From Mobula hypostoma (Eukaryota), in assembly GCF_963921235.1 (NCBI RefSeq), contig NC_086097.1, positions 106,580,001-106,644,000 of the forward strand: 64,000 bases of DNA. Reading direction: 5' to 3'. The notes under the pieces were generated by a model. That model was not told the DNA's origin and made no database searches. It worked only from the letters and a program-made list of their open reading frames with translations. This document shows positions 6,401-59,329 of this stretch, piece by piece. The first letter of the stretch is position 1; every line of letters begins with the position of its first letter. The position numbers were made by a program, and so were the translations under genes.

Positions 6401-9400
6401 ACTCAATTACACTGTACTATCACACTGAGCCACACATTTACACTGTAACATCACACTGAGCCACTCATTTACACTGTAACATCACACTGAGACACTCATT
6501 TACACTGCAATATCACACTGAGCCACTCATTTACACTGTAACATCACACTGACACGCTCATTTACACTGTAACATCACACTGAGACACTCATTTACACTG
6601 TAATATCACACTTTACACTGTAGCTTCACACTGAGCCACTCATTTACACTGTAACATCACACTGAGACACTCATTTACACTGCAATACCACACTGAGACA
6701 CTCATTTACACTGTAATATCACACTTTACACTGTAGCTTCACACTGAGCCACTCATTTATACTGTAATATCATAATGAGCCACTCATTTACACTGTAACA
6801 TCATAATGAGCCACTCATTTACACTGTAACATCACACTTTACACTGTAACATCATAATGAGCCACTCATTGACACTGTAACATGACACTGAGCCACTCAT
6901 TGACACTGTAACATCACACTTTACACTGTAACATCATAAGGAGCCACTCATTTACACTGTAACATCACACTGAACAACTCATTTACACTGTAATGTCACA
7001 CTGAGCCACTCATTTACACTGTAACATCACACTGAACAATTCATTTACACTGTACTATCACACTGAGCCACTCATTTACACTGTAACATCACACTGAGCC
7101 ACTCATTTACACTGTAACATCACACTGAGACACTCATTTACACTGTAATACCACACTGAGCCATTCATTTACACTGTAATATCACACTGAGACACTCATT
7201 TACACTGTAATATCACACTTTACACTCATTTACACTGTAATATCACACTTTACACTGTAGCTTCACACTGAGCCACTCATTTATACTCTAATATCATAAT
7301 GAGCCACTCATTGACACTGTAACATCACACTGAGCCACTCATTTACACTGTAACATCACACTGAGACACTCATTTACACTGTAATAACACACTTTACACT
7401 GTAGCTTCACACTGAGCCACTCATTTATACTGTAATATCACACTGAACCACTCATTTACACTGTAGTATCACACTGAGCCACACATTTACACTGTAACAT
7501 CACACTGAACCACTCATTTACACTGTAGTATCACACAGAGCCACTCATTTACACTGTAACATCACACTGAACAACTCATTTACACTGTACTATCACACTG
7601 AGCCACACATTTACACTGTAACATCACACTGAGCCACTCATTTACACTGTAACATCACACTGAGACACTCATTTACACTGCAATATCACACTGAGCCACT
7701 CATTTACACTGTAACATCACACTGACACGCTCATTTACACTGTAACATCACACTGAGACACTCATTTACACTGTAATATCACACTTTACACTGTAGCTTC
7801 ACACTGAGCCACTCATTTACACTGTAACATCACACTGAGACACTCATTTACACTGCAATACCACACTGAGACACTCATTTACACTGTAATATCACACTTT
7901 ACACTGTAGCTTCACACTGAGCCACTCATTTATACTGTAATATCATAATGAGCCACTCATTTACACTGTAACATCATAATGAGCCACTCATTTACACTGT
8001 AACATCACACTTTACACTGTAACATCATAATGAGCCACTCATTGACACTGTAACATGACACTGAGCCACTCATTGACACTGTAACATCACACTTTACACT
8101 GTAACATCATAAGGAGCCACTCATTTACACTGTAACATCACACTGAACAACTCATTTACACTGTAATGTCACACTGAGCCACTCATTTACACTGTAACAT
8201 CACACTGAACAATTCATTTACACTGTACTATCACACTGAGCCACTCATTTACACTGTAACATCACACTGAGCCACTCATTTACACTGTAACATCACACTG
8301 AGACACTCATTTACACTGTAATACCACACTGAGCCATTCATTTACACTGTAATATCACACTGAGACACTCATTTACACTGTAATATCACACTTTACACTC
8401 ATTTACACTGTAATATCACACTTTACACTGTAGCTTCACACTGAGCCACTCATTTATACTGTAATATCACACTGAACCACTCATTTACACTGTAATATCA
8501 CACTGAGCCACTCATTTACACTGTAACATCACACTGAGGCACTCATTTACACTGTAATATCACACTTCAGACTGTAGCATCACTGAGCCACTCATTTACA
8601 CTGTAACACCACACTGAGCCACTCATTTACACTGTAATATCACACTGAGCCACACATTGACACTGTAACATCACACTGAGCCACTCATTTACACTGTAAC
8701 ATCACACTGAGACACTCATTTACACTGCAATATCACACTGAGCCACTCATTTACACTGTAACATCACACTGACACACTCATTTACACTGTAACATCACAC
8801 TGAGACACTCATTTACACTGCAATACCACACTGAGCCACTCATTTACACTGTAACATCACACTGAGACACTCATTTACACTGCAATACCACACTGAGCCA
8901 CTCATTTACACTGTAACATCACACTGAGACACTCATTTACACTGCAATACCACACTGAGACACTCATTTACACTGTAATATCACACTTTACACTGTAGCT
9001 TCACACTGAGCCACTCATTTATACTGTAATATCACACTGAACCACTCATTTACACTGTAATATCACACTGAGCCACTCATTTACACTGTAACATCATAAC
9101 GAGCCACTCATTTACACTGTAACATCACACTTTACACTGTAACATCATAATGAGCCACTCATTGACACTGTAACATCACACTGAGCCACTCATTGACACT
9201 GTAACATCACACTTTACACTGTAACATCATAAGGAGCCACTCATTTACACTGTAACATCACACTGAACAACTCATTTACACTGTAATGTCACACTGAGCC
9301 ACTCATTGACACTGTAACATCACACTGAGCCACTCATTTACACTGTAAGATCACACTGAGCCACTCATTTACACTGTAACATCACAATGAGACACTCATT

Positions 9401-9875
9401 TACACTGTAACATCACACTGAGACACTCATTTACACTGTAATACCACACTGAGCCATTCATTTACACTGTAATATCACACTGAGACACTCATTTACACTG
9501 TAATATCACACTGAGACACTCATTTACACTGTAATATCACACTTTACACTGTAGCTTCACACTGAGCCACTCATTTATACTGTAATATCACACTGAACCA
9601 CTCATTTACACTGTAATATCACACTGAGCCACTCATTTACACTGTAACATCACACTGAGGCACTCATTTACACTGTAATATCACACTTCAGACTGTAGCA
9701 TCACTGAGCCACTCATTTACACTGTAACACCACACTGAGCCACTCATTTACACTGTAATATCACACTGAGCCATTCATTTACACTGTAGTATCACACTTT
9801 ACATTGTAATATCACACTGAGCCACTCATTTACACTGTAACATCACACTGAGCCACTCATTTACACTGTAGTATC
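3453..9875. repeat. Minisatellite, 31-bp unit (ATCACACTGAGCCACTCATTTACACTGTAAC) with interspersed 20-bp deletion variant
   Basis: Uninterrupted ~6.4-kb tandem array with no unique spacers; variant units recur in ordered blocks. Confidence 0.98.
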
Positions 9876-23448: not shown

Positions 23449-25535
23449 AGAACCATAGAACATTACAGCACAGAAACAGGCCTTTTGGCCCTTCTTGGCT
23501 GTGCTGAACCATTTTTCTGCCTAGTCCCACTGGCCTGCACCTGGACCATATCCCTCCATACACCTCTCATCCATGTACCTGTCCAAGTTTTTCTTAATTG
23601 TTAAAACTGAGTCTGCATTTACCACTTCATCTGGCAGCTCATTCCACACCTTACCACTCTCTGTGTGAAGAAGTCCCCCACTAATGTTCCCTTCAAACGT
23701 TTCCCCCTTCACCCTTAACCCATGTCCTCTTTTTTTTTTCTCCCCTAGCCTCAGTGGAAAAAGCCTGCTCGCATTCACTCTATCTATACCCATCATAATT
23801 TTATATACCTCTATCAAATCTCCCCTCATTCTTCTAAGCTCCAGGGAATAAAGTCCCAACCTATTCAACCTTTCTCTGTAACTCAGTTTCTCCAGTCCCG
23901 GCAATATCCTTGTAAACCTTCTCTGCACTCTTTCAACCTTATTGTAATTTCCTTCCTGTAATTTGGTGACCAAAATTGAACACAATACTCCAAATTCAGC
24001 CTCACCAATGCCTTATACAACCTCACCATAACATTCCAACTCTTATACTCAATACTTTGATTTATAAAGGCCAATGTACCAAAAGCTCTCTTTACGACCC
24101 TATCTACCTGTGACGCCACTTTTAGGGAATTTTGTATCTGTATTCCCAGATCCCTCTGCACTCCTCAGTGCCCTACCATTTACCTTGTATGTTCTACCTT
24201 GATTTGTCCTTCCAAAGTGCAATACCTCACACTTGTCTGTATTAAACCCCATCTGCCATTTTTCAGCCCATTTTTCCAGCTAGTCCAAATCCCTCTGCAA
24301 GCTTTGAAAACCTTCCTTACTGTCCACTACACCTCCAATCTTTGTATCATCAGCAAATTTGCTGATCCAATTTACCACATTATCATCCAGATCACTGATA
24401 TAGATGACAAATAACAATGGACCCAGCACTGATCCCTGTGGCACACCACTAGTCACAAGCCTCCACTCAGAGAAGCAATACTCCACTACCACTCTCTGGC
24501 TTCTTCCATTGAACCAATGTCTAATCCAATTTCCTACCTCTCCACGCACCTAGCGACTGAATCCTCTGAACTAACCTCCCATGCGGGACCTTGTCAAAGG
24601 CCTTACTGAAGTCCATGTAGACAACATCCATTGCCTTCCCATCATCCACTTTCCTGGTAACCTCCTCGAAAAACTCTAATAGATTGGTCAAACATGACCT
24701 ACCATGCACAAAGCCATGTTGACTCTCCCTAATAAGTCCCTGTCTATCCAAATACTTGTAGATCTTTTAGTACTCCTTCCAATAATTTACCTACTTCCGA
24801 CGTCAAACTTACCGGCCTATAATTTCCCAGATTACTTTCAGAGCCTTTTTAAAATAATGGAACAACATGAGCTATCCTTTAATCCTACAGCACCTCACCC
24901 GTAGATACCAACATTTTAAATATATCTGCCAGGGTCCCTGCAATTTCAACACTAGTCTCCTTCAAGGTCCGAGGGAATACCCTGTCAGGTCCTGGGGATT
25001 TATCTACTCTGATTTGCCTCAAGAGAGCAAGCACCTCCTCCTCTTCAATCTGTACAGGTTCCATGACCTCACTACTTGTTTGCTTTATTTCCATAGACTC
25101 CATGCCAGTTTCCTTAATAAATACAGATGCAAAAAAAAATTTAAGATCTCCCCCATTTCTTTTGGTTCCATACATAGCCGACCACTCTGATCTTCAAGAG
25201 GACCAATTTTATCCCTTACTCTTAATATACCTGTAGAAGCTCTTTGGACTATTCTTCACCTCGACTGCCAAAGCAACCTCATGTCTTCTTTTAGCCCTCC
25301 TGATTTCTTTCTTAAGTACTTTTTTTGCACTTTTTATACTCCTCAAGTACCTTATTTGCTCCCTGTTTCTTATACATGTCATATATCTCTCTCTTCTTCT
25401 TTATCAGAGTTCCAATATCCCTTGAGAACCAAGGTTCCTTATTCTTATTCACTTTGCCTTTAATCCTGACAGAAACATACAAACTCTGCACTCTCAAAAT
25501 TTCTCCTTTGAAGGCCTCCCACTTACCAATCACAT
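23449..25535 (-). mobile_element. 5'-truncated CR1 LINE (same family as 43069-46517), several frameshifts and deletions
   Basis: [32 protein letters not shown]; 3' tail agaaccatagaa on the + strand. Confidence 0.95.
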
Positions 25536-25539
25536 TCTT

Positions 25540-26160
25540 GATATTTGTTCCCTCAACAACTGCAAGCCGTCCAGGCCCTGAGGCAGCAAAGCAGCCCCAA
25601 ACTGTGATGCTTCACAGTTGGGATGAGGATTTGGTGTTGGTGTGCAGTACCTTTTTTCCTCCAAACATAGCAATGTGCATTTTTGCCAAAAAGTTCAACT
25701 TTTGCTCTCATTTGTCCATAGAATATTGTCCAAGAAGAACATCCAGGTGGTCTTTTACAAACTCGAGATGTGCAATAATTTTTTTTTTTGGAGAGCAATC
25801 CTTTCCTCCATGATGTACTTCCATGAACACCATTCTTATTCAGTGTTTTTCTTATAATGCACACATGAACAGAGACTTTAGCAAGTTCTTGAGATTTCTG
25901 CAGGTATTTTGCTGTTACCCTCGAGATTTTTTTCACCTCCTTTGGCAGTGCACATTGTGTTCTTGGTGTGACCTTACAGGATGCCCACTCTTAGGAAGAG
26001 TAGCAACAGTACTGAGTTCCTTCCATTTCTTGACAATCTCTCTTACTGTGGACTGATGAACACTCAGGTCTTTAGAAATGCTTTTGTAGCCTTTTCTAGC
26101 TCCATGCATCTCTACAATCCTTCTCTTAAGGTCCTCTGGAAGTTGTTTTGATCCAGGCAT
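25540..26160 (-). pseudogene. Tc1 transposase, N-terminal and central part (frameshifted)
   Basis: MPGSKQLPEDLKRRIVEMH..KGYKSISKDLSVHQSTVREIVKKWK (paired-like HTH); KVELFGKNAHCYVWRKKG...PTVKH. Confidence 0.9.
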
Positions 26161-26957
26161 AGTGCACATAAACAATCTTTCTTGAGAAGAGCAGGCTCTG
26201 TCAGTAATCTGACTATCTATGTCTTTTTTATAGGGCAGGGCACCTGTCCAACCCACATCTCCAATCTCATCTCAGTGATTGGAATACCTGACTCCAAATA
26301 GCTTTTGTAGAAGGCATTACCCCAGAGGTTCACATACTTTTTCCAACAAATACATGTAATATTGGATAATTTTTCTCAATAAATAAATGAACAGAAAAGA
26401 AACAAAAAGAAATGTTTTTTGTGTGTTTAATTATGTTCTCTTTATCTAGTTTTAGGACTTATGTGAAGATCTGATCACATTTTAGGTCATACTTATGCAG
26501 AAATAGAGAAAATTCGACAGTGTTCACAAACTTTCTAGCACTACTGTAATGTCTTTTTCTCTTTGTTTGGGATTCCTCAGCTGTTTTAGTATAAACAGTG
26601 AAGTCATACTGAGACCATTTCAGTGATCGTGATCTGTTAGAGCACAACTTAATTTTTCCATCACCCCAAAATAAGCATGCATCATTTTTTCTGCACATTA
26701 ATGGAATTGTATCAGATAGCAAGGTGATGTGATTTTGATTTCTTTGTCTTTCCTTGTAACCTCCAAGAATTGCTGCAGCTCTTAATTTCGGCTATTTTAT
26801 CCGAGTCTTACAGTAATGCCTTTCCTCCACAGCAATCATAACTATAAAACTAACTGTCAAGCTCTTCTATTTCAACAATAGTAAAAAAACTGGACTATTT
26901 TTGATTATTCATATTTCTATTAAAATCATTTACCTTCCATCCTTCAAAAGGTGAATT

Positions 26958-43148: not shown

Positions 43149-44780
43149 CTAGTCCCACTGACCTGCACACAGACCATATCCCTCCATACACCTCCCATCC
43201 ATGTATCTGTCCAATTTATTCCTAAATGTTACAAAAGAACCCGCATTTACCACCTCGTCTGGCAGCTCATTCCATACTCCCACCACTCTCTGTGTGAAGA
43301 AGCCCCCCCGAATGTTCCCTTTAAACTTTTCCCCCCTCACCCTTAACCCATGTCCTCTGGTTTTTTTCTCCCCTTGCCTCAGTGGAAAAAGCCTGCTTGC
43401 ATTCACTCTTTCTATACCCATCATAATTTTATATACCTCTATCAAATCTCCCCTCATTCTTCTACGCTCCAGGGAATAAAGTCCTAATCTATTCAACCTT
43501 TCTCTGTAACTGAGTTTCTCAAGGCCCGGCAACATCCTTGTAAACCTTCTCTGTACTCTTTCAACCTTATTTATATCCTTCCTGTAATTTGGTGACCAAA
43601 ACTGAACACAATACTCCAGATTCGACCTCACCAATGCCTTATACAACCTCATCATAACATTCCAGCTCTTATACTCAATACTTCGATTAATAAAGGCCAA
43701 TGTACCAAAAGCTCTCTTTACGATCCTATCTACCTGTGACGCCACTTTTAGGGAATTTTGTATCTGTATTCCCAGATCCCTCTGTTCCACTGCACTCCTC
43801 AGTGCCTTACCATTAACCCTGTATGTTCTACGTTGGTTTGTCCTTCCAACATGCAATACCTCACACTTGTCTATATTAAACTCCATCTGCCATTTTTCAG
43901 CCCATTTTTCCAGCTGGTCCAAGTCCCTCTGCAGGCTCTGAAAACCTTCCTCACTGTCTACTACACCTCCAATCTTTGTATCATCAGCAAACTTGCTGAT
44001 CCAATTTACCACATTATCATCCAGATCATTGATATAGATGACAAATAACAATAGACCCAGCACTGATCCCTGTCGCACACCACTAGTCACAGGCCTCCAC
44101 TTAGAGAAGCAATTCTCTACCACCACTCTCTGGCTTCTTCCATCGAGCCAATGTCTAATCCAATTTACCACCTCTCCATGTATACCTAGCCACTGAATTT
44201 TCCTAACTAACCTCCCATACGGGTCCTTGTCAAAGGCCTTACTGAAGTCCATGTAGACAATATCCACTGCCTTCCCTTCATCCACTTTCCTGGTAACCTC
44301 CTCGAAAACCTCCAACAGATTGGTCAAACATGACCTACCACGCACAAAACCATGTTGACTCTCCCTAATAAGCCCCTGTCTATCCAAATGCTTGTAGATT
44401 CTGTCTCTTAGTACTCCCTCCAATAACTTACCTACAACTGACGTTAAACTCACCGGCCTATAATTTCCCGGATTACTTTTCAATCCTTTTTTAAACAACG
44501 GAACAACATGAGCCACTCTCCAATCTTCCGGCACCTCACCCGTAGACAGCGACATTTTAAATATTTCTGCCAGGGCCCCCGCAATTTCAACACTAGTCTC
44601 CTTCAAGGTCCGAGGGAACACTCTGTCAGGTCCCGGGGATTTATCCACTTTAATTTTCCTCAAGACAGCAAGCACCTCCTCCTTTTCAATCAGTACAGTT
44701 TCCATGGTCTCACTACTTGATTCCCTCAATTCCATAGATTTCATGCCAGCTTCCTTAGTAAATACAGACGCAAAAAACCT
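43149..44780 (-). CDS. CR1 ORF2, C-terminal part: reverse transcriptase
   Basis: NYRPVSL, QHGF, DFSKAFD, GVRQGSVLG, FADD; 531 open codons in the ORF track. Confidence 0.92.
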   Translation of the reverse strand, partial: RFFASVFTKEAGMKSMELRESSSETMETVLIEKEEVLAVLRKIKVDKSPGPDRVFPRTLKETSVEIAGALAEIFKMSLSTGEVPEDWRVAHVVPLFKKGLKSNPGNYRPVSLTSVVGKLLEGVLRDRIYKHLDRQGLIRESQHGFVRGRSCLTNLLEVFEEVTRKVDEGKAVDIVYMDFSKAFDKDPYGRLVRKIQWLGIHGEVVNWIRHWLDGRSQRVVVENCFSKWRPVTSGVRQGSVLGLLLFVIYINDLDDNVVNWISKFADDTKIGGVVDSEEGFQSLQRDLDQLEKWAEKWQMEFNIDKCEVLHVGRTNQRRTYRVNGKALRSAVEQRDLGIQIQNSLKVASQVDRIVKRAFGTLAFINRSIEYKSWNVMMRLYKALVRSNLEYCVQFWSPNYRKDINKVERVQRRFTRMLPGLEKLSYRERLNRLGLYSLERRRMRGDLIEVYKIMMGIERVNASRLFPLRQGEKKTRGHGLRVRGEKFKGNIRGGFFTQRVVGVWNELPDEVVNAGSFVTFRNKLDRYMDGRCMEGYGLCAGQWD

Positions 44781-46089
44781 ATTTTAAGATCTCCCCCATT
44801 TCCTTTGGTTCCGCACAAAGCCGACCACTCTGATCTTCAAGAGGACCAATTTTATCCCTTACAATCCTTTTGCTCTTAATGTACTTGTAAAAGCTCTTTG
44901 GATTATCCTTCACTTTGACTGCCAAGGCAACCTCATGTCTTCTTTTAGCCCTCCTGATTTCTTTCTTAAGTATTTTCTTACACTTCTTATACTCCTCAAG
45001 CACCTGATTTACCCCCTGTTTCCTATACAGTTCATACAACTCCCTCTTTTTCTTTATCAGAGTTGCAATATCCCTTGAGAACCAAGGTTCCTTATTCCTA
45101 TTCAATTTGCCTTTAATCCTGACAGGAACATACAAACTCTGCACTCTGAAAATTTCCCCTTTGAAGGCTTCCCACCTACCAATCACATCTTTGCCAGAGA
45201 ACAACCTGTCCCAATCCACGCTTTTTAGATCCTTTCTCATTTCTTCAAATTTGGCCTTCTTCCAGTTCAGAACCTCAACCCTAGGACCAGATCTATCCTT
45301 GTCCATGATCAAATTGAAACTAATGGTGTTATGATCACTGGAACCAAAGTGCTCCCCTACACAGACTTCCGTCACTTGCCCTAATTCGTTACCTAACAAG
45401 AGATCCAATATTGCATCCCCTCTAGTTGGTCCCTCTATATATTGATTTAGAAAACTTTCCTGATCACATTTTACAAACTCTAAACCATCTAGACCCCTAA
45501 CAGTATGGGAATCCCAATCAATGTATGGAAAATTAAAATCCCCTACCACCACAACTTTATGTTTCCTGCAGTTGCCTGCTATCTCTCTGCAGATTTGCTC
45601 TTCCAAGTCTCGTTGCCTATTGGGTGGTCTGTAATACAATCCCACTAATGTGGCCATACCTTTCCTGTTTCTCAGCTCCACCCATAAGGACTCAGTAGAC
45701 AAGCCCTCTAATCTGTCCTGCCTGAGCACTGCTGTAATATTTTCCCTAACAAGCAATGCTACTCCCCCACCTTTCATTCCTCTGCCTCGATCACATCTGA
45801 AACATCGGAACCCTGGAATATTAAGCTGCCAGTCCTGCCCCTCCTGTAGCCAAGTTTCACTAATTGCTACAACATCATAATTCCACGTGTCAATCCACGC
45901 CCTCAACTCATCCGCCTTCCCCGCAATACTCCTAGCATTGAAATATATACACCTCAGAAGATTTTTACCACCACTCACAACCTTTCTATCGGCGGATTTG
46001 CTTAAACCTTCAATATCATTTATTTTCACCTCAGCCACACTGTCAGCTCTGGCACTCTGGTTCCCATCCCCCTGCAAATCTAGTTTAAA
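44779..46089 (-). CDS. CR1 ORF2, N-terminal part: AP-like endonuclease
   Basis: YFNARS, ISETW, YYRPP, GDFNF, ILDLLL, SDHN intact; frame ends just after a +1 insertion at 44782-44785. Confidence 0.9.
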   Translation of the reverse strand, partial: FKLDLQGDGNQSARADSVAEVKINDIEGLSKSADRKVVSGGKNLLRCIYFNARSIAGKADELRAWIDTWNYDVVAISETWLQEGQDWQLNIPGFRCFRCDRGRGMKGGGVALLVRENITAVLRQDRLEGLSTESLWVELRNRKGMATLVGLYYRPPNRQRDLEEQICREIAGNCRKHKVVVVGDFNFPYIDWDSHTVRGLDGLEFVKCDQESFLNQYIEGPTRGDAILDLLLGNELGQVTEVCVGEHFGSSDHNTISFNLIMDKDRSGPRVEVLNWKKAKFEEMRKDLKSVDWDRLFSGKDVIGRWEAFKGEIFRVQSLYVPVRIKGKLNRNKEPWFSRDIATLIKKKRELYELYRKQGVNQVLEEYKKCKKILKKEIRRAKRRHEVALAVKVKDNPKSFYKYIKSKRIVRDKIGPLEDQSGRLCAEPKEMGEILK

Positions 46090-46514
46090 GCCTCCCCAAT
46101 AGCACTAACAAACTTCCCTGAAAGGATATTGGTCCCCCTGTGGTTCAAGTGTAACCCGTCTCTCTTGTACAGGTCCCACCTGCCCCAGAAGAGGTCCCAA
46201 TGATCCTGAAATCTGAAACCCTGCCCCCTACACCAGTTCCTCAGCCACTTGTTCCTCTTCCAGAGCATCCTATTCCTACCCTCACTGGCACCTAGCACAG
46301 GTAGCAATCCTGAGATTACCACCCTCGAGGTCCTGCTTTTCAACTTCCTACCAAGCTCTCTATACTCACTGTCCAGGACCTCTTCACTCTTCCTTGCTAT
46401 GTCATTGGTACCGATGTGCACCACGACATCTGGCTGGTCACCCTCCCACTTCAGAATGTCATGCAATCGATCAGAGACATCCTTGACCCTGGCACCTGGG
46501 AGGCAACAAACCAT
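46080..46514 (-). CDS. CR1 ORF1, C-terminal SGNH/GDSL esterase domain (5'-truncated)
   Basis: CLPGA, VVVHIGTNDI, DGLHLN motifs. Confidence 0.85.
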   Translation of the reverse strand: MVCCLPGARVKDVSDRLHDILKWEGDQPDVVVHIGTNDIARKSEEVLDSEYRELGRKLKSRTSRVVISGLLPVLGASEGRNRMLWKRNKWLRNWCRGQGFRFQDHWDLFWGRWDLYKRDGLHLNHRGTNILSGKFVSAIGEALN

Positions 46515-46517
46515 CCT

Positions 46518-47420
46518 TTTCTCAGTTCTAATGGAAGGTTATCAACCTGAACCAATCATTGTTTCTCATCCATTGAAGTTGCCTGGCCTACTGGGTACTT
46601 CCAATATTGCCCGCTTTCATTTCAGGTTTCCAGTATCTGTACTTTATGATTTTTGATATTCTATATCTGAGGTACATAGGTTCAGAACAGATTTTTAAAT
46701 GCCAAGACAAATTGATGAAGTGGGGATAAGAAAATACAAAAGATAAAATCATCCAGAAATACAAGGAATAAAAACAGAGATGGTGGAAACAATCAAGCAA
46801 CATTTATAGAAAGAGAAAGCAGATAAGGTTTCAGATCAAAAACCCTTCATTACATCTGAGGAAGAAAATAACAGAGAAGGTATGGTTAAAACAAAGGTAA
46901 TGTCAGTAATAGAGTGAAATGATGAACAGACATTAGATGAACAGTTCAGCTCCTTTGTCTGTGTAATATATCGCTAACGTTGTGAAATCTGGGTGATGTT
47001 GTGAAGTCTGGGTTCTGATGAAAGGGCCTTGGGCTGAAACATCAACTGTTTATTCCTGTCCATAGGTGTTGCATGTCTTGGTGAGATCCTCCAGCATTTT
47101 GTTTGTGTTACTTAAGATTTCCAGAATTGGCAGAATCTTTTGGGTATTGACGTCCATAGTGGACCCTGCTGAACAGGTCACATTACACAAATAACAAAAA
47201 CAGGTGACAGCAATGGCATCTTTAAATGGTCAATCCCTGATACAAACAAAAAGAAAGAGCAAGTTTTCTGAAGCTGGAGAATTCAATTTTGGGTCTTGAA
47301 GATTGCAATATACCCAGGCGAAAATTAAATGAGGTGTTTTTCCTCTTGATGTTACATTGGAATAACGAACTAAAGTAGCAAGAAACCAGAAGTTCAGGTC
47401 TAACTGAGCAGTTCTGAGAA
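46518..47420. mobile_element. Cluster of old Penelope-like terminal-repeat and endonuclease remnants
   Basis: Degenerate hammerhead-type segments at ~46523-46560 (+), ~46822-46858 (-) and 47011-47047 (+); FRLGILQSSRPKIEFSSFR at ~47260-47330 (-) is homologous to FHLGSLQPDGMNIDFSNF at ~60855-60910. Confidence 0.55.
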
Positions 47421-47869
47421 CCTCTACCCTCTTCTCCCCGAAGGGTGTGGCACACTTAACCAGCATATGTTCCTCGGCTGTTTTCCAGCCCAACAGTCTG
47501 CTAACTTGTCAGCATGCTAGGTGGGAAACCTGCTGAGAAATTACTGAATCTATCCTGCCTTTAATTTCCTAAGGACACGTGAGAAAATCCAAACAACATC
47601 CTCTGGGCTATGGAAAATGTGGAAAAGATATTCTTAACGATTACACCAGGAATCGGAGGTTTTATTACGAAAGTCATGGCGGCAACAGTGCATTTTGTTA
47701 CCACCTCTGCAAAGCTTAAAAGTAAAATATTTCATTTCTTTGGTTAGATCTTTTGGGGATTCATTTAGGTTCGTCAGAGCAAAAATTTGCGAGGATAAAT
47801 TTCAAACTGTTCCAGAAGGAAAAAAGGAACTACACTAAGTGCCCACTGTATCAGATACACCTTTACAAC

Positions 47870-48407
47870 TGTGACCCTCAGGCTCGGCCAGCTCATTTTC
47901 GTCCCGGGGAAGACAACTTCTGGCCCCGCCAAACTGAGAAATCTCATTTGTGTGGATGCTGCGTCATGTGTTGCCCAGTTACAAATCCACACCATAAAAT
48001 ATCAGACAGTACACCGTATGCAATTAACTGATTGAACTTTATAAATCTTAATCTGAATATAGGGTTAGTAAAGAAAATAAAAAGAAAAAGGGCCCATTTT
48101 AAGAGAAAAGTCAAAGGTGCACGTTGGAGCTCACAAACACAGCCATTCATCAACCATCGACCTCCTCCGAGCGTCACCGTCCTTCGAACCCTCACTCCCG
48201 GTCCACTCTGTCCAGTGGTCTTTCAGCTCTCTCCACATGCGGCTTCCTTCTTCTCCTCTTGCCGACCAAAGACTGTGAAAAATCTCTCTTCCAGACTCAC
48301 AAGACAGAACAACAGCATACCAAACACCGTTATCTCTAGTCATAACCCAAACATTGCTGCTACAGAGAAACCATTACATTATCAGTGAAACCTTACAGCA
48401 TGTTACA
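47870..48407 (-). mobile_element. 3' LTR of Ty3/Gypsy retrotransposon (538 bp)
   Basis: Minus strand begins TGTAACA and ends GGTCACA; directly preceded by a polypurine tract. Confidence 0.9.
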
Positions 48408-48421
48408 CTCTTCCCCCCACC
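48408..48421 (-). promoter_or_regulatory. Polypurine tract (plus-strand primer)
   Basis: GGTGGGGGGAAGAG abutting the TG of the LTR. Confidence 0.85.
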
Positions 48422-49411
48422 AAGTTTAGTCACATCCTCATGACGTTGAGATAATTCGCCAACTCTTCTTGCAAAACACAAAGCCCAATCCAGGTGTAAC
48501 AGGCAGTGACATAGCTCCTCAACACAGTAGGGGTCACACTCTGTTCCCCTGGTGCTACGTAGGCCAAACTATCCGGTGGTCTCCTAATTCTCTGAGACCT
48601 CCGCACGCACCCTCATCCAACCCTTCAGGTTCCGACACTACTGGGGATACTTCCGGTCTACCTGGTGAGGCCTCCCCCGATCTATCATTTGCGCCCACCT
48701 GCAACTCGGAGCCCTCTGTTCCATGATCAAACCTCGCTTCCTCCCCTGCAGAGTCCCGCTGCAACCCAGGCTGCCCACAGATAGCCCGCCCCCCCCCAAC
48801 TTCACCTGTCTCAATGGGACAAGGGCCGGGAGTCTCTTCCTCAATCAATGGGGAGTTAGCGAAAAGCAGCATATACCACACATCCAGGTCCTCATCCTCT
48901 GAATCAGTATCCCTTTCAGGGATGGGGGCCAGCCTAACCTCGCCTGTTGGGGGACCGGTAGTCACTCCGCGTGTCCGAAGAATCCTCTTCCTAAGTGTAG
49001 GCTCCAAGTCGGGCTCTGGGTCTACCTGCACCTCTTGACCCAGGGGCAACAGGTGGTTCCGATGGAGAATCTTGACAGGCCCAGTCCCATCTTCTGGTTT
49101 CACACAGAAAAGTGGTAGGTTTGGCATCTAACTCTCCACCACATAGGGTGCAGCCACCCAGCGGTCAGCCAACTTATGCTTTCCAGATAGCCCCAAATTC
49201 CTTATGAAGACTCTTGTCTCCCGGCAGGAGTTACGAGAACTTCATCTTTTGATCATACCTCCTCTTATTCCCTCAATTCTGCTTGGCAGCCGCAACTCCA
49301 ACTAACTCATAAGCCCTTTTCAGCTCTCTTCTTATGTCAGACACATACTTCAGATAAGTCTTCGGTAGGAAGTTACCCCTGTCAGTCCCAAAACAAAAGT
49401 CAATGAGCAAC

Positions 49412-49883
49412 ACACATCAAAGTTGCTGGTTGAACGCAGCAGGCCAAGCAGCATCTATAGGAAGAGGCGCAGTCGACGTTTCAGGCCGAGACCCTTCGTC
49501 AGGACTAACTGAAGGAAGAGTGAGTAAGGGATTTGAAAGCTGGAGGGGGAGGGGGAGATGCAAAATGATAGGAGAAGACAGGAGGGGGAGGGATAGAGCC
49601 GAGAGCTGGACAGGTGATAGGCAAAAGGGGATACGAGAGGATCATGGGACAGGAGGTCCGGGAAGAAAGACAAGGGGTGAGGGGGTTGACCCAGAGGATG
49701 GGCAAGAGGTATATTCAGAGGGACAGAGGGAGAAAAAGGAGAGTGAGAGAAAGAATGTGACGAAGGGTCTCGGCCTGAAACGTCGACTGCGCCTCTTCCT
49801 ATAGATGCTGCTTGGCCTGCTGCGTTCAACCAGCAACTTTGATTTGTGTTGCTTGAATTTCCAGCATCTGCAGAATTCCTGTT
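49412..49883 (-). mobile_element. Short Penelope-like insertion with an inverted terminal segment, inside the Gypsy integrase
   Basis: Homologous to 60379-60760; flanked by direct repeat gtcaatgagcaac (49399-49411, 49884-49896); 96-bp inverted arms. Confidence 0.88.
49471..49506 (-). ncRNA. Minimal type I hammerhead ribozyme (Penelope-associated)
   Basis: AGTC-CTGACGA-A-GGGT(CTCG)GCCT-GAAAC-GTC-GACT: core CUGANGA and GAAA, GUC cleavage triplet, stem I AGTC/GACT, palindromic ACGT in place of stem III. Confidence 0.75.
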
Positions 49884-52800
49884 GTCAATGAGCAACCTCG
49901 CTTTGTGCCCAAACATCAGATAATATGGCGAGTACCCAGTAGCTTCATTTCGTGTACAGTTGTAACTGTGAACCAGATGCCCAATATGTTGACTCTACTT
50001 GCTCTTCTTGCTGATCTCCAGGGTTCCAAGCATGTCTAGCAAGGTCCGATTAAACCTCTCTGGCTGGGAATCACTCAGCGGGTGATAGGGCATGGTCCTC
50101 GACTTCTCGACTCCAAGCATGCCCAGCAACTCATGGATGAGTCTGCTCCCGAATTCCCATCCCTGATCGCTATGTATTCATCTGCAGAGGCCATAATAAA
50201 CAAAATACTTCTCCCATAACACTTTTGCTGCTGTAGACGCCCTCTAGTCCTTGGTAGGAAAAGCATGAGCAAATCTGGCGTAGTGGTCTGTGATGACCGA
50301 GACATTCGCCGTGTTGCTGGCATTGGGTTCTATTGCCAGGTAATCCATACACACCAGGTCCAGAGGCCCCGCACTCTGCAGGTGGGAGAAGGGAGCTGCC
50401 CGCCTAGGCAGTGTCTTCCGCCGTATGTATCGAATGCACGACTTGCAGTATTCTTCAACCTTTGACTTCACCCGGAGCCAGTAGAACCGATCTCTGAGCA
50501 ATCCATCGGTCCTTTCCACCCCCAAATGTCCAGAATCATCATGAAGTGACTTCAACGCATTCCTCCGATACTTCTCCAGCAGAACCAGCTGGCAATGCCG
50601 AGGTCGGTCTGGGGGTGACATGACCCGGTATAAGATCTGGTTCTTCAACTCCAACCAAGGTCATTCTCGCAGTAATGGAGGTACCGACGCATGTTTTGCC
50701 TTCTCCGCCTGAGCCCTGTCTCCCTTTTCAACCACCACCCAAATGGTACCAATGCCCAGATCATCTCACTGAGCAGCTGCCACTTCCCCAGAACTCAATT
50801 CCGGCAGCTGATTGGTCTTCACAGCAGTCAGGTTACAATAAACTTGGGGGATGTTGTCATCAGGTGCCCCCAATTGGTCCACCACTCGATCCTGCCCCTC
50901 CTTTTCCTCTGCCTTCACGGTAATGGCAAACTGACTCATGGCCTTCACCCCCATGGCAGGAATGCTCTCCCACTCCTCGTCCCTGTCCAGTCCCTCATGC
51001 CCTCATTGGGAAAAAGCATCCTCATCAATGTTCCGGCTTCCCGGTCGGTATTTCAGCCTGAAATCATAGACAGACATCGCTGCCAACCACTGATGGCCTG
51101 TAGCATCCAGTTTTGCCGAGGTCAGGATATAAGTCAGAGGGTTGTTGTCCGTCCTTACCTCAAACTTGGCCCCGTAGAGGTAGTCACTCAGCTTATCCAC
51201 CACCGCCCATCTTAACGCCAGAAATTCCAACTTGTGTGTGGGATAGTTTTTCTCGGAGGGTGACAGACTCTGGCTGACAAACGCAACGTGTCTCAACCCG
51301 GTTCCCTGATCCTGATACAAGATGCCCCCCAAGCCTTCCCGACTGGCATCACTGTGAAGTGCATATGGCAATCGGGGGTTCACAAAAGCCAGCACCGGCA
51401 CTTGGGTCAGCAGCTCCTTCAACAACTGAAAGGCTTCTTCACAGTTTACATCCCACCTCAGTCCAAAGGGCTCCGACGGGTTAAGATACTCTCCACCCTC
51501 CTGTCCCTTTCTCCTCCTCATTTTCTTCCCCAAGGGAGGGTAACCACACAGAAGCTGATTCAACAGGCGACTCACTTTCACATAGCCCTTCACGAACCTC
51601 CGATAGTAACCACAGAACCCAAGGAATGAGCGCAGTGCGCTCACAGTCTGGGGTCTTGGCAAAGTGGAAACCACCTCTATCTTAGTTGGATCTGTAGCTA
51701 CTCCATTTCGTGAGACTATGTGCCCAACATAGCTAACAGATGTCTTGTAGAACTGGCACTTGTCCAGGGAAAGTTTTAACCCTTCAGCTTTCAGGCAGCC
51801 CAGCACCTTCAGCAGCCTCACTTCGTGCTCTTCCGAGGTGGATCCAAATACTATGAGGTCATTCAGATACACCAATACCTCAAGCAAATTCATATCCCCC
51901 ACCATCCTCTCCATGACTCATTAGGAGGTTGCAGGAGCTCCCGATATACCCTGGGGCATCCTTTCGAACTGGAAGAATCCCGGGGACATATAAATGCCAT
52001 CTTCTCTTTGTCAGCCTCACTCATAGCGACCTGGTAGTATCAACTCCTCAAATCCAGTACACTGAACCACTTCGCACCAGTCAAACAGGCCAGTGCGTCT
52101 TTGCTCCTCGGGTCCGTGTACTGGTCAGGGACGGTACGCCTATTCACAATCCTATAGTCCACACACATCCATACATTTCCATTCTTCTTCCAGGCCACTA
52201 CTATTGGGGATGCATAGGGGCTTTGGGACTCAGTGATGATCCCAGCTTCCTTCAACTTACACAAATGCTGCCGCATATCTTCCACGTCTGCAGGGGCCAG
52301 TCACCGTGACCTCTCTCTAAACGGGGTGTCCTTGGTCACCTGGATAGCATGACCAGTGCCCTTGCAACAACCCACATCAAACTCGTCAGTGGAAAAGACA
52401 CCTTCCAGCTTCAACATCTTCTCTACCAACCTCCTTTTCCACACCGCAGGCACCGGTGAGTCCCCAAAGTTGAATGACTCTGCTGTCAACTTTCCCCCCT
52501 TTTCCAATAGTTTCTCCCCAGCTTGTCTCACAGGGAAACTAGACATTACTGTCACCGGAAACAGGTGCGCCAGGGGCATCCCCCGCTTGAAGGTGACCTC
52601 TCTCTTCGTAGTGTCCCTAACAATCGCAGCCATACTGCTTGCCTGTACAATTGAGGGCTTCTGCAGCTCGGGCCTCACCAGTACCCCAGCAGGATATCCT
52701 GACTCCCCCTCAAGGTCTTCCGGTCTTCCAGAGCATCCACTGAGGGCCTCCCCCTCAGGCACTCTGGAAAATTTGGGGGTCCGCATCACTCTTGCTACTT

Positions 52801-53620
52801 ACCCGGGCTGGACCACCAGTGGCTTCGACTGGGTGAACCACACAGTCTCTCGTTTGAATTCGGTATCCGGCCCAATGCAGCCACGCACTTCCTCAAAAGC
52901 AGCACAGAACACCCGGTGCACAGAAAATGTCCCCAGAAAGATCTCGCCAGCCTTCTCCTTGCAGGCCCCCGTGAGTCTCCTCACAAGAGGGGTGCTGGTT
53001 CCCACCAGAAATGAAATGCCACCCTTCTCAACCGGGTCCAGACAAACCAGCACTAAGGTATCAAGGACCTCAGACACTCCCACATCAGCCTCCGAGAACT
53101 CCAGCTTCATGACAAATAACCATCATCTGGATAATCACCAGCACTGAGACACCAGATCTCCAGTGCCCTGAATGGTGTCAAATGTAGATGCTTCAGATAC
53201 CGGTTGTAAAACGAACAGTACAACAACGTGACCTCAGACCCAGTGTTGAGTATGGCTTTAGCATAAATACCCTATTTTCATAGCGACACACTGGAGCATG
53301 GTTCCTCTAAGCCTTCAGGAATAGGGTCTTTCACTTGCGAGGGTTCCTTGGTGCATTGCTGGGAATGTGTTCCCCCAGAGACTCCAGGCCATGCCCCCAC
53401 TGGATCTCCTCTAAGTTTCCTGACACCTCTCCTTGCTTAGGCACCCGGGGGCTCACTCTCCGAGGGGCTTCCTGCCACTCACATTCCCACCTGAGGTGGC
53501 CCTCTTCACCACAATTATAGCAGATGATACCGGCCGCCCTCCTTCTCACGGAACACCAGCCACCCGCAGCCCTCGGTGTAGTCCGTCCCCTTGGGGCGTC
53601 ATCCTCTCTACCCGTCCTAT

Positions 53621-53824
53621 CTTTACTATCGCTATATTCAGATTAAGATTTATAAAGCTCAATCAGTTAATTATATATGATCTACTGTCTGCTATTTTGC
53701 AGTGTGGATTTGTAACTGGGCAACACATCACGCAGCATCCGCACAAACGAGATTTCTCAGTTTGGCGGGGCCAGGAGTGGTCTTCCCCTAGACGAACACG
53801 TGCTGGCCGAGCCTGAGGGTCACA
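53621..53824 (+). mobile_element. 3' portion of the same Gypsy LTR, in inverted orientation
   Basis: Reverse complement of 47870-48073 with ~22 differences in ~204 bp (manual count); ends GGTCACA. Confidence 0.9.
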
Positions 53825-53828
53825 ATTG

Positions 53829-53846
53829 TGGGGGCTCATCTGGGAT
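53829..53846 (+). promoter_or_regulatory. Primer-binding site complementary to the tRNA-Pro 3' end
   Basis: TGGGGGCTCATCTGGGAT, 16/18 match to the MLV-type Pro PBS TGGGGGCTCGTCCGGGAT (both changes at CpG), 4 nt after the LTR end. Confidence 0.85.
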
Positions 53847-54352: not shown

Positions 54353-57300
54353 ATCATAGAACATAGAATATAGAACATAGAAAAGTACAGCACAGTACAG
54401 GCCCTTCGGCCCACAGTGTTGTGCTAACCCTTAAAACCTGCCTCCCATATAACCCCCCACCTTAAATTCCTCCATATACCTGTCGAGTAATCTCTTCAAT
54501 TTCACTAGTATATTTGCCTCCACCACTGACTCAGGCAGTGCATTCCACGCACCAACCACTCTCTGAGTAAAAAACCGTCCTCTAATATCCCCCTTGAACT
54601 TCCCACCCCTTACCTTAAAGCCCTGTCCTCTTGTACTGAGCAGTGGTGCTCTGGGGAAGAGGCACTGGCTATCCACTCTATCTATTCCTCTTAATAGCTT
54701 GTATACCCTAATCATGTCTCCTTCTCTCCAAAGAATAAAGCCCCAGCTCCCTTAATCTCCCTTAATCTCTGATCGTAATGCATACTCTCTAAACCAGGCA
54801 GAATCCTGGTAAATCTCCTCTGTACCCTTTCCAATGCATCCATATCCTTCCTATAGTGAGGCGACCAGAACTGGACACAGTACTCCAAGTGTGGCCTAAC
54901 CAGAGTTTTACAGAGCTGCATCATTACCTCACAACTCTTAAACTCTATCCCTCAATTTATGAGAGCTAACACCCATAAGCTTTCTTAACTACCCTATCTA
55001 CCTGTGAGGCAACTTTCAGGGATCTGTGGACATGTATTCCCAGATCCCTCTGCTCCTCCACACTACCAAGTATCCTGCCATTTACTTTGTACTCTGCCTT
55101 GGAGTTTGTCCTTCCAAAGTGTATCACCTCACACTTCTCCAGGTAGACCTCCATCTGCCACTTCTCAGCCCACTTCTGCATCTTATCAATGTCTCTCTGC
55201 AATCTTCGACAATCCACTACACTATCCACAACACTACCAACCTTTGTGTCATCTGCAAACTTGCCAACCCACCCTTCTACCCCCACATCCAGGTTGTTAA
55301 TAAAAATCACGAAAAGTAGAGGTCCCACAACCGATCCTAGTGGGACACCACTAGTCACAACCCTCCAATCCAAATGTACTCTTTCCACCACGACCCTCTA
55401 CCTTCTGCAGGCAAGCCAATTCTGAATCCACCTGGCCAAACTTCTCTGGATCCCATGCCTTCTGACTTTCTGAATAAGCCTACCATGTGGAACCTTGTCA
55501 AATGACTTACTAAAATCCATGTAGATCACATCCACTGCACTACCCTCACCTATATGCCTGGTCACCTCTTCAAGGAACTCTATCAGGCTTGTTAGACACA
55601 ATCTGCCCTTCATAAAGCCATGCTGACTGTCCCAGATCAGACCATGATTCTCTAAATGCCCATAGATCCAAGAACCTTTTCCAACAGCTTTCCTACCACA
55701 GACATAAGGTTCACTGGTCTATAATTACCCGGACTATCCCTGCTACGTTTTTTCAACAAAGGGACAACATTCGCCTCCCTCTAATCCTCCGGTATCATTC
55801 CCGTGGACAACAAGGACATAAAGATCCTAGCCAGAGGCTCAGCAATCTCTTCCCTCGCCTCATGGAGCAGCCTGGGGAATATTCCGTCAGACCCCGGGGA
55901 CTTAATCATCCTAACATATTTTAACAACTCCAACACCTCCTCTCCCTTAATATCAACATTCTACAAAACATCAACCTCACTCATATTGTCCTCACCGTCA
56001 TCAAGTTCCCTCTCATCGGTGAATACCGAAGAGAAGTATTCATTGAGGACCTCGCTCACTTCCACAGCCTCCAGGCACATCTTCCCACTTTTATCTCTAA
56101 TTGATCCTACCTTCACTCCTGTCATCCTTTTGTTCTTCACATAATTGAAGAATGCCTTGGGGTTTTCCTTTACCCTACTCACCAATGCCTTCTCATGCCC
56201 CCTTCTTGCTCTCCTCAGCCACTTCTTAAGCTCCTTTCTTGCTACTCTATATTCCTCAATAGACCCATCTGATCCTTACTTCCTAAACCTCATGCATGCT
56301 GCCTTCTTCCACCCGACTAGATTTTCACCTCACTTGTCACACATGGCTCCTTCACCCTACCATTCTTTATCTTCCTCACCAAGACAAATTTATCTCTAAC
56401 ATCCTGCACGAGATCCCTAAACATCGACCACATGTCCCTGCAAAAACATCATCCCAATTCACACCTGCAAGTTCTAGCGTTATAGCCTCATAATTTGCCA
56501 TTCCCCAATTAAACATTTCTCTGTCCTGATTCTATCCTTTTCCATGATAATGCTAAAGGCCAGGGAGCAGTGGTCACTGTCCCCCAGATGCTCACCCACT
56601 GAGAGATCTGTGACCTGACCCAGTTCGTTACCTAATACTAGATCTAATATGGCATTCCCCCTAGTTAGCCTGTTAACATACTGTGACAGGAATCCGTCCT
56701 GGACACACTTAACAAACGTTGCCCCGTCTAAACCATTGGAACTAATCAGGTGCCAATCAATATTTGAGAAGTTAAAGTCACCCATGATAACAACCCTGTT
56801 ATTTTTGCACCTTTCCAAAATCTGCCTCCCAATCTGCTCCTCAGTATCTCTCCTGCTACCAGGGGACGTACAGAATATTCCCAATAGAGTAACTGCTCCC
56901 TTCCTGTTCCTAATTTCCACCCATACTGAATCAAAGGAGGATCCTGCTATATTACCCACCTTTTCTGCAGCTGTAATAGTATCCCTGACCAGTAATGCCC
57001 TCCCCTTCCCCCCCCCATCCCTTTTAAAGCACTGAAATCCAGGAATATTGAGAATCCATTCCTGCCCTGGTGCCAGCCAAGTCTCTGTAATGGCCACATA
57101 TGTATCCAAGCTCTCAGTTCATCATCTTTGTTCCTGATGCTTCTTGCATTGAAGTACTCGCACTTTAGCCCTTCTACCTTGCTACCTTTACACCCTTTAT
57201 TCTGCTTCTCTTTCCTCAAAGCCTCTCTATATGTCAGATCTGGCTTTACTCCATGAACTTCTTCAACTGCTCTATCGCTCCAGCTCCCATCCCCCTTGCA

Positions 57301-58410
57301 AATTAGTTTAAACCCTCCTGAACCATGCTAACAAACCTACCTGCAAGGATATTGCTCCCCCTCGAGTTCAGGTGCAACCCATCCAATCTGTACAGGTCAT
57401 AACTTCCCGAGAAGAGATCCCAATGATTCAAAAATCTAAAACCCTGCCTCCTGCACCAACTCCTCAGCCACGCATCCAACTGCCACTTCCTCCAATTCTT
57501 ATCATCACTGTCACGTAGCACTGGTAGCAATCCTGAGAACACCACCCTTGAGGTCCTGTTCTTCAGCCTTCTGCCTAGTTCCCGAAACTCACACTTCAGG
57601 ACCTCATCCCTCTTCCTGCCTATGTTGTTGGTACCAACATGTATCATTGTTTCTGGTTGTTTTCCCTCTCATACCAGGATATCGTGCACCCGGTCAGAAA
57701 CATCCCGGACCCTAGCACCCGGGAGGCAACAAATCATGCGGGTGTCCTTCTCACGTCCACAAAATCTCCTGTCTGCTCCCCTGACTATAGGGTCCCTAAT
57801 GACGGCAGCTCTCCTCTTCTCCATTCCACCCTTCTGCACCACAGGGTCAGACTCACCATGGCTCACCCCGGTCGGTCATCCCTGCCAACAGTATCCAGGA
57901 CAGTTACCTATTATTCAGGGGAATGGCTACAGGGGTGCTCTGCACTACCTGTCTACTCACCTTCGCTTTCCCCCCTCTGACTGTCACCCAACGACCTGCT
58001 TCCAGCAGTCTAACTGTGACTACATCCCTGAAGCTCTCATCTGTGACTGTCTCATTCTCCCTTATGAGTTGAAGGTCATCCAGCTTCTGCTCCAGATTCC
58101 TTACACAGTCTTCCATATCGACCAGCCACATGCACTTCTGGCAGATGTGACTCTGCGGGAGAGGGGAGTTCCCCCAAGACTGCCACATTTCACATAAGAG
58201 GCACATCACCGTCTCAGGAGGAATTGTAAAGCCTAAGTGGGAGCAAGCTCGTCCTCCGCCTCTTCTCGGCGAAGCCTGTCGAGTCAAAGCCTCAAAGCTC
58301 CACTCCTTCACTGGCCGCTCCGCTTGAGCTGCCCCTCTATTTATTTGTTTGAGCTTTTCAAACTGCTTAGTCACCTAACCTCGATTGCCCAATCAGCTAC
58401 TTTCGGCTGA
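54353..58410 (-). mobile_element. Near-full-length decayed CR1 LINE (second family)
   Basis: 5' UTR, ORF1, APE (YFNARS, ITETW, GDFNF, SDH), RT (DFSKSFDKVPH, FADD) and (TTCTATR)n tail; many frameshifts. Confidence 0.95.
57303..58210 (-). pseudogene. CR1 ORF1 (zinc finger, coiled coil, SGNH esterase), disrupted
   Basis: CLLCEMW...HICQKC; LEQKLDDLQLIRE; AAVIRDPIVRG (decayed GDS), HVGTNNI, DGLHLN. Confidence 0.85.
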
Positions 58411-59204: not shown

Positions 59205-59329
59205 CTTCCATAATTCAGGGTGATTTGTTCAATTGTAAAACCTGCTGAAATCCCTGAAGCTCTCATCTTCCATAATTCAGGGTGATTTGTTCAATTGTAA
59301 AACCTGCTGAAATCCCTGAAGCTCTCATC
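59205..59329. repeat. Perfect 62-bp tandem duplication
   Basis: cttccataattcagggtgatttg...ccctgaagctctcat present twice, at 59205 and 59267. Confidence 0.95.

Follow-up and report, generated by a model that had tools for sequence, protein, structure and literature searches.

Two CR1 copies and their junctions

The 64,000-nucleotide stretch of Mobula hypostoma DNA analysed here (contig NC_086097.1, positions 106,580,001 to 106,644,000; hereafter the window, with positions counted from its first letter) contains two minus-strand copies of a CR1 long interspersed element (LINE), each spanning the junction between the first and second open reading frames (ORF1 and ORF2), and it is this junction that concerns us. 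Copy B extends from about 58190 to 54355 and is broken in both ORFs, and copy A extends from 46523 to 43070, is 5′-truncated and has a single frame break in ORF2; both are dead relics. Matches to Pfam identify the C-terminal part of ORF1 as an SGNH esterase and ORF2 as an APE endonuclease with a reverse transcriptase (RT), and the closest named homologues of ORF1 come from rays and sharks. The features of the two copies are as follows.

57907–58188, minus strand: copy B, N-terminal part of ORF1 (Cys-motif/coiled-coil region), broken; tblastn with residues 1–69 of homologue P0002, 36% identity
57303–57872, minus strand: copy B, SGNH/GDSL esterase part of ORF1, ending E-G-L-N-stop, with internal stops upstream of 57668; PF13472, E = 3e-10, and tblastn 62% to P0002
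57306–57312, minus strand: copy B, slippery heptamer T TTA AAC (U_UUA_AAC), from sequence
57296–57305, minus strand: copy B, ORF1 stop TAA (57305–57303) and 10-nt spacer TAATTTGCAA, from sequence
57286–57295, minus strand: copy B, G-rich motif GGGGGATGGG, candidate stimulator; read from sequence, with a position kept in relatives and a putative role
57151–57285, minus strand: copy B, linker in the ORF2 frame, family-specific, purine-rich and AUG-free; also found in protein P0225
54473–57150, minus strand: copy B, ORF2 (APE endonuclease and RT) in several frames, inactive; PF03372/PF14529 and tblastn pieces in three frames
54355–54382, minus strand: copy B, short tandem 3′ tail, from sequence, which we take to be typical of CR1
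46080–46523, minus strand: copy A, 5′-truncated ORF1 esterase, ending E-A-L-N-stop; PF13472, E = 3e-12, and tblastn
46063–46089, minus strand: copy A, heptamer (46089–46083), TAG, 10-nt spacer TAGATTTGCA and GGGGGATGGG (46072–46063), from sequence
43152–46062, minus strand: copy A, linker, APE and RT, with one frame break near 44780; PF03372, E = 2e-18, PF00078, E = 9e-30, and the list of reading frames

The esterase type of ORF1 is indicated by matches to PF13472 above the cut-off in both copies and by a profile match to the solved structure 4C1B (E = 3e-40), and the APE-then-RT order of ORF2 by PF03372/PF14529 in both copies, PF00078 in copy A and tblastn for the RT of copy B. From the ORF1 tree described below and from likeness to CR1-labelled rows, both copies appear to be canonical CR1 LINEs of the esterase type. 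Indeed, they share with the canonical vertebrate CR1 elements of PMC4120745 (type IVB) and PMC13343379 an ORF1 with a Cys-motif/coiled-coil region and an SGNH domain, an ORF2 with APE and RT domains, cartilaginous-fish hosts and the junction itself, which is present in published consensuses (statements about cited papers refer, here and below, to the passages of them that were searched). A third CR1 copy in the window (23451–25535, minus strand) is 5′-truncated and 89% identical to copy A, and lacks the junction.

In both copies ORF1 ends in U_UUA_AAC immediately followed by a stop codon, and GGGGGAUGGG begins 10 nt past the heptamer. The original prediction had described for copy B a heptamer at 57312–57306, a TAA stop, GGGGGATGGG after a 10-nt spacer, and a −1 frame without stop or AUG before the endonuclease, and all of this is present in the sequence. 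In particular, the −1 frame of copy B reads FKLICKGDGSWSDRAVEEVHG...EGLKCEYFNARS and stays open for 121 codons; the endonuclease begins with a NARS motif, here at codon 55, and the earliest Met is codon 72. In copy A the −1 frame stays open for 436 codons, NARS lying at codon 51 and the earliest Met at codon 105. No −1-frame ATG thus precedes NARS in either copy, and ORF2 cannot start upstream of the heptamer because an in-frame stop lies five codons upstream of it, with no ATG in between, in both copies. We also considered the AUG within GGGGGATGGG as a start for ORF2 and rejected it: it lies in the ORF1 frame, which closes after 17 codons, and it is missing from the relative L001 (described below) and from the published consensus CroPor_CR1-3a.

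Heptamer, phase, spacer length and G-motif are identical in the two copies, as had been claimed, and the linker that follows cannot be aligned between them. Identity per 30-nt bin is 18–27 across ORF1 and 24 at +0 to +30, falls to 14/30 at +30 to +60, past the G-motif, and is 7–10/30 beyond that. The description of the two as divergent families holds for the distinct linker; elsewhere divergence is only moderate, with 75% nucleotide identity over ORF1 and 67% over the RT. Because 22 of the 27 positions of the junction block are identical, against 75% over ORF1, the pair supports the G-motif better than the heptamer, and by itself this comparison of sequences is modest evidence. The complete junction pattern occurs twice in the window and averages 0.00 occurrences over 100 shuffles, although the pattern was itself taken from the finding, and a canonical in-phase heptamer precedes the stop at 7 of the 675 reading-frame ends in the window (frames of at least 40 codons), both junctions included.

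The junction among relatives

A metagenome scan by protein similarity returned 15 loci. Of the five whose sequence was read, L001 (44% amino-acid identity) is a true CR1 relative, and the junction is missing from L002, L005, L010 and L018. L001, whose near-identical cluster is named from Acipenser (a sturgeon-type contig), has T TTA AAC TAG, a 10-nt spacer and a run of six G, and its −1 frame is open and AUG-free, with the first Met after NARS. An X_XXY_YYZ heptamer in phase at the ORF overlap is therefore present in A, B and L001. Viral contigs, searched by protein and by motif, yielded no relative and plasmids no match, four prokaryotic SGNH-like loci among genome contigs were not used, and the 16,992 characters of the PMC4120745 supplements that were covered hold no junction sequence.

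Published consensuses extend the pattern. In the PMC13343379 supplement, of which the first 400 letters of each consensus row were covered, TTTAAACT lies at an ORF1/ORF2 junction in 19 of 44 places. The heptamer was the criterion by which these 19 junctions were picked; they represent crocodilians, a lizard, a frog, a coelacanth, a bowfin, a halosaur, a chimaera, sharks and rays, and the heptamer is followed by TAG in 11, TAA in 6, TGA in 1 and no stop in 1. GGGGG follows after exactly 10 nt in six of these rows, and nine have at least four G at 3–13 nt. A search of the same rows that was independent of the heptamer and used flanking coding motifs (21 of 29 places plus 6 of 6) found nine junctions, eight of them with heptamer and stop. 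T TTA AAC-stop is thus kept in A, B, L001 and eight of nine independently found consensus rows, even though copy A uses TTA for a minority of its Leu codons (16 of 109) and AAC for a minority of its Asn codons (12 of 50).

Among contigs from three DNA runs placed on copy A at 80% likeness, 320, 352 and 316 match only from the first base of the heptamer inward, and their upstream part is unlike copy A and reads as a different ORF1 end. The junction block is thus common to other families with diverged flanks. Contig depth on copy A has a peak at the junction and also elsewhere, one RNA-labelled run contributes 12 contigs, and no variant falls at 46032–46106 among the 40 rows of variants listed (121 further rows exist).

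The C-termini of ORF1 proteins were compared in 56 homologues and the best 150 of 8858 profile matches, which together make 203 distinct proteins, collected independently of the motif. Of the 203, 158 extend as far as the end of the esterase profile, of which 95 end in L-N, 10 in G-N, 3 in K-N and 50 otherwise. U_UUA_AAC requires a U-ending codon before Leu, so that Gln, Glu, Lys, Met and Trp, which have only A- or G-ending codons, are incompatible with it at that position; one of these residues precedes L-N in 1 of the 95 proteins, and in none of 39 after similar tails are collapsed, against a background of 17–18% at positions −4 to −10. Before G-N the residue is Gln in eight of nine cases, fitting CAG GGA AAC, and K-N is preceded by Ser or Gly. 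The three kinds of end thus fit U_UUA_AAC, G_GGA_AAC and A_AAA_AAC, with deeper relatives ending in Q-G-N or S-K-N, and these are three of the four most shift-prone heptamers listed in PMC5009743.

We built an ORF1 tree from 90 of 155 domain-covering rows, with the terminal residues left out. In its vertebrate CR1 clade (35 rows, support 89/93), whose named members come from a snake, lizards, turtles, a frog, a coelacanth, a sturgeon and cartilaginous fish, the homologous terminal positions hold Leu in 34 and Asn in 33 of the 35 rows; this conservation equals that of the D-G-x-H box, and the top frequencies of the nine preceding residues are 0.26–0.57. In the deeper group, L-N, G-N and K-N interchange inside supported subclades (S-G-N beside S-K-N; F-L-N beside Q-G-N), and the L2-type esterase clade (seven rows, 100/100) has no L-N, G-N or K-N end. 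The solved ZfL2-1 esterase 4C1B ends about two positions before L-N, and ORF1p of the ZfL2-1 type is reported to dimerise and bind lipids (PMC3905857). The original prediction had proposed an RNA-level constraint that fits a −1 frameshift, and it gains support both from the covariation of L-N, G-N and K-N with compatible preceding residues and from the recurrence of the junction in L001 and in published CR1 consensuses. The site appears to be conserved beyond what the protein would need.

Some deeper esterase ORF1 proteins have variant ends: an internal K-N with a short tail after it (P0124, P0134, P0172, P0179, P0187, P0203), F-F-x (P0107, P0120, P0158) or E-N (P0162, P0195), which as protein sequences would suit shift sites of the form A_AAA_AAC, U_UUU_UUY and G_GAA_AAC, respectively. 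Two proteins in which ORF1 is joined in frame to F-K-L (P0029, from Hypanus, and P0031) were taken as copies with an upstream indel and rejected as natural fusions. P0019 and P0209, which are of the cartilaginous-fish CR1 type, stand under bacterial names (Pseudomonas aeruginosa, Carnobacterium) on contigs of 3–4 kb and are probably contamination.

The G-run downstream of the stop was compared in nine clean junctions (those of A, B and L001 and of six consensus rows), where it covers three codons of the ORF2 frame. The first of these is a codon for Q, K, P, R or L with G as its last base in every case, the second is invariably GGG, and the third is GAT, GAG or GGA; all nine retain the Gly at codon 7. 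G-D-G is replaced elsewhere by G-E-G, G-G-E, G-A-G or G-G-G, the last two of which are seen in read-through proteins. G-D-G and the AUG embedded in its codons therefore seem dispensable while the G-run persists, which is moderate evidence given the G-rich strand.

A probable −1 frameshift and its alternatives

Taken together, these comparisons of sequences make it likely that the junction serves esterase-type (canonical vertebrate) CR1 LINEs as a programmed −1 ribosomal frameshift site and gives rise to an ORF1p–ORF2p fusion. Ribosomes would translate ORF1 up to U_UUA_AAC, where most would stop at the adjacent stop codon, and the major product would be an ORF1p ending in L-N. A minority would slip back by one base through tandem re-pairing of tRNA-Leu and tRNA-Asn and would continue through the linker, endonuclease and RT (…L-N-L-I-C-K-G-D-G… in copy B). 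The resulting fusion would be Gag-Pol-like, with no encoded protease, and slippage would set a low ratio of ORF2p to ORF1p. The probable stimulators are the stop next to the heptamer and, at +11, the G-run, the latter acting as a linear or protein-bound element and not as a local hairpin.

Several observations weigh against this reading. Among the 19 consensus rows, 13 lack the exact 10-nt spacing and 4 lack a G-run, many of them being indel-ridden, and one low-quality gecko consensus among the nine found independently lacks the full heptamer. No stable local RNA structure is predicted 3′ of the site in nine folds (z-scores −1.0 to +1.2; the folding program does not model pseudoknots), the junction has no match in Rfam, and the long-range partners with which the G-run pairs best in a duplex scan lie at different sites in different elements. 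Neither folds nor Rfam thus yield a 3′ stem-loop or pseudoknot 5–9 nt downstream, and the linear G-run occupies that place. The G_GGA_AAC and A_AAA_AAC heptamers of deeper relatives are read back from protein sequence. Helix positions −5 and −6 also lack Q, E, K, M and W in some counts, which makes the binomial estimate for the ban on these residues before L-N too optimistic, and the rows are related. Two further points, start codons near the junction and a possible structural role for the terminal Leu, belong to the alternatives to which they lead.

The main rival, which we regard as unlikely yet the most serious of the alternatives, is that ribosomes terminate after ORF1 and reinitiate ORF2 at an overlapping AUG or near-cognate codon, the conserved block serving as the reinitiation signal. 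TAATG occurs in 3 of the 19 consensuses (ScyCan_CR1-1a, SquAca_CR1-6c and SquAca_CR1-17a) and gives an ORF2-frame AUG across the stop, near-cognate codons lie at codons 4–5 (ATT in B, TTG in A), and reinitiation has been published for SART1 (at UAAUG) and, independently of AUG, for L1. Moreover, five named ray ORF2 predictions, among 16 ORF2 homologues, have a linker Met 23–76 residues before NAR, although these Mets are scattered, with one at the position of the G-run (P0205), and the predictions are biased in that they need a start codon. An in-frame AUG before the APE domain had been named in the original prediction as evidence against a frameshift; it is absent from A, B and L001, whose open −1 frames have no start of their own, and because of the three TAATG consensuses and the five ray predictions its absence is not universal. 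UAAUG is, however, lacking in A, B, L001 and 16 of the 19 consensus rows, and the codon that overlaps the stop otherwise varies freely (ATT, GAT, GAA, GGT, AGC, GTT, GTG, AGT). Reinitiation also predicts no in-phase X_XXY_YYZ heptamer, no ban before L-N on residues with only A- or G-ending codons and no switch to Q-G-N or S-K-N. Reinitiation may operate in some families or alongside slippage, and the two could coexist in the TAATG families.

It is much less probable that the junction reflects a protein-level constraint, with the C-terminus of ORF1p needing L-N, the N-terminus of ORF2p needing G-x-G, and the nucleotide match following from ancestry and G-rich codons. In a structural model the terminal Leu falls on the hydrophobic side of the final helix (residues 292–310), so that its conservation may be partly structural; the invariant Gly at codon 7 also accords with such a constraint, as do the G-rich sense strands of CR1 (in copy A, G is at the third position of 390 of 1124 codons). 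A constraint on the protein would nevertheless not account for the retention of the rare codons TTA and AAC, and L2-type esterases fold without L-N. Deeper families put G or K in place of L, and the last residue has a pLDDT of 44 in the model. The residue before GGG changes and its codon still ends in G, Gly is always GGG (a codon that accounts for 28 of 92 Gly codons in copy A), and G-D-G gives way to the variants listed above, by which the caveat of the original prediction that G-D-G might be a protein-level constraint is largely answered. Nor does such a constraint provide ORF2 with a route to translation.

Least probable of all, by a small step, is that a signal in the DNA or pre-mRNA gives rise to a message with ORF2 alone, whether from a promoter inside the element (TTTAAA is TATA-like) or by splicing at an acceptor (which CTAG in TAG families resembles): the AG is missing in TAA and TGA families, the first AUG of an ORF2-only RNA would in A, B and L001 fall inside the endonuclease, and neither promoter nor acceptor explains the phase or the G-N and K-N switches.

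As to the stimulator, there are only two clear G-tracts in A and B, so that no four-tract quadruplex is evident; a protein-bound or quadruplex-like stimulator may be envisaged. A wider proposal, which we put forward tentatively and consider somewhat less likely than its negation, is that all esterase-type vertebrate CR1s, and the deeper relatives that swap U_UUA_AAC, G_GGA_AAC and A_AAA_AAC, make their RT only as an uncleaved ORF1p–ORF2p fusion, the slip being driven not by folded RNA but by the linear G-run at +11, either as the target of a protein (a host factor that binds G-tracts, or ORF1p itself, with feedback) or as a quadruplex.

Elsewhere in the window lie a tandem array at 3453–9875 (31-nt unit, also 62 and 93; 75–83% matches; strong GC skew), a remnant of a Tc1/Sleeping Beauty-like transposase at 25553–26271 (minus strand, PF25787), a decayed long terminal repeat (LTR) retrotransposon at 47865–53829 (with fragments of RT, RNase H and an integrase zinc finger on the minus strand), a 210-nt inverted match between 47865–48074 and 53620–53829 (89%), and an exact 63-nt tandem duplication at 59205–59329.

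Known systems and implications

The mechanism proposed is a known one that has apparently not been described for CR1. The searched passages of PMC4120745 and PMC13343379 contain no mention of frameshifting, a slippery site or overlapping ORFs, and CR1 is not mentioned in the first 300,000 of the 449,034 characters of PMC5009743. We found no description of a CR1 frameshift in the literature searched, which includes passages of PMC3905857, PMC3708506, PMC2881922, PMC5911963, PMC5006619, PMC11835228, PMC6609765 and bioRxiv 10.64898/2026.09.24.754024, with most subscription papers, such as the 1997 chicken and turtle CR1 papers, outside that scope.

The gag-pol junctions of retroviruses and LTR elements and the ORF1a/1b junction of coronaviruses (U_UUA_AAC in infectious bronchitis virus) have the same class of heptamer in the same phase, and the enzyme would in CR1, as there, be a C-terminal extension. 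CR1 differs in being a non-LTR element, in having the stop directly after the heptamer, and in the lack of a detected hairpin or pseudoknot and of an encoded protease. [quoted passage not shown] Unlike it, the CR1 motif is G-rich and has no known binding protein, and only a −1 shift is needed. As of 2016, no natural quadruplex stimulator of frameshifting was known (PMC5009743).

Frameshifting in a non-LTR element has precedent because TRE5-A and TRE3-A of Dictyostelium need a −1 frameshift for ORF2 (figure legend in PMC5911963); these are likewise APE-type non-LTR elements, but differ in clade and have an unrelated ORF1. SART1 and human L1, which reinitiate, likewise make a bicistronic LINE RNA, and the UAAUG of SART1 recurs in the three CR1 consensuses mentioned above, whereas their ORF2p is a separate protein and no slippery heptamer has been described for them in the passages searched.

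How ORF2 is translated from a bicistronic LINE RNA is an open question, for which reviews propose reinitiation (L1, SART1), and CR1 is the dominant retrotransposon group in most vertebrates (PMC13343379). If the frameshift is real, CR1 ORF2p would be annotated with the wrong N-terminus, would be tethered to ORF1p and would have its dosage set by slippage, and a G-run that stimulates without structure would represent a novel class among eukaryotic frameshift elements.

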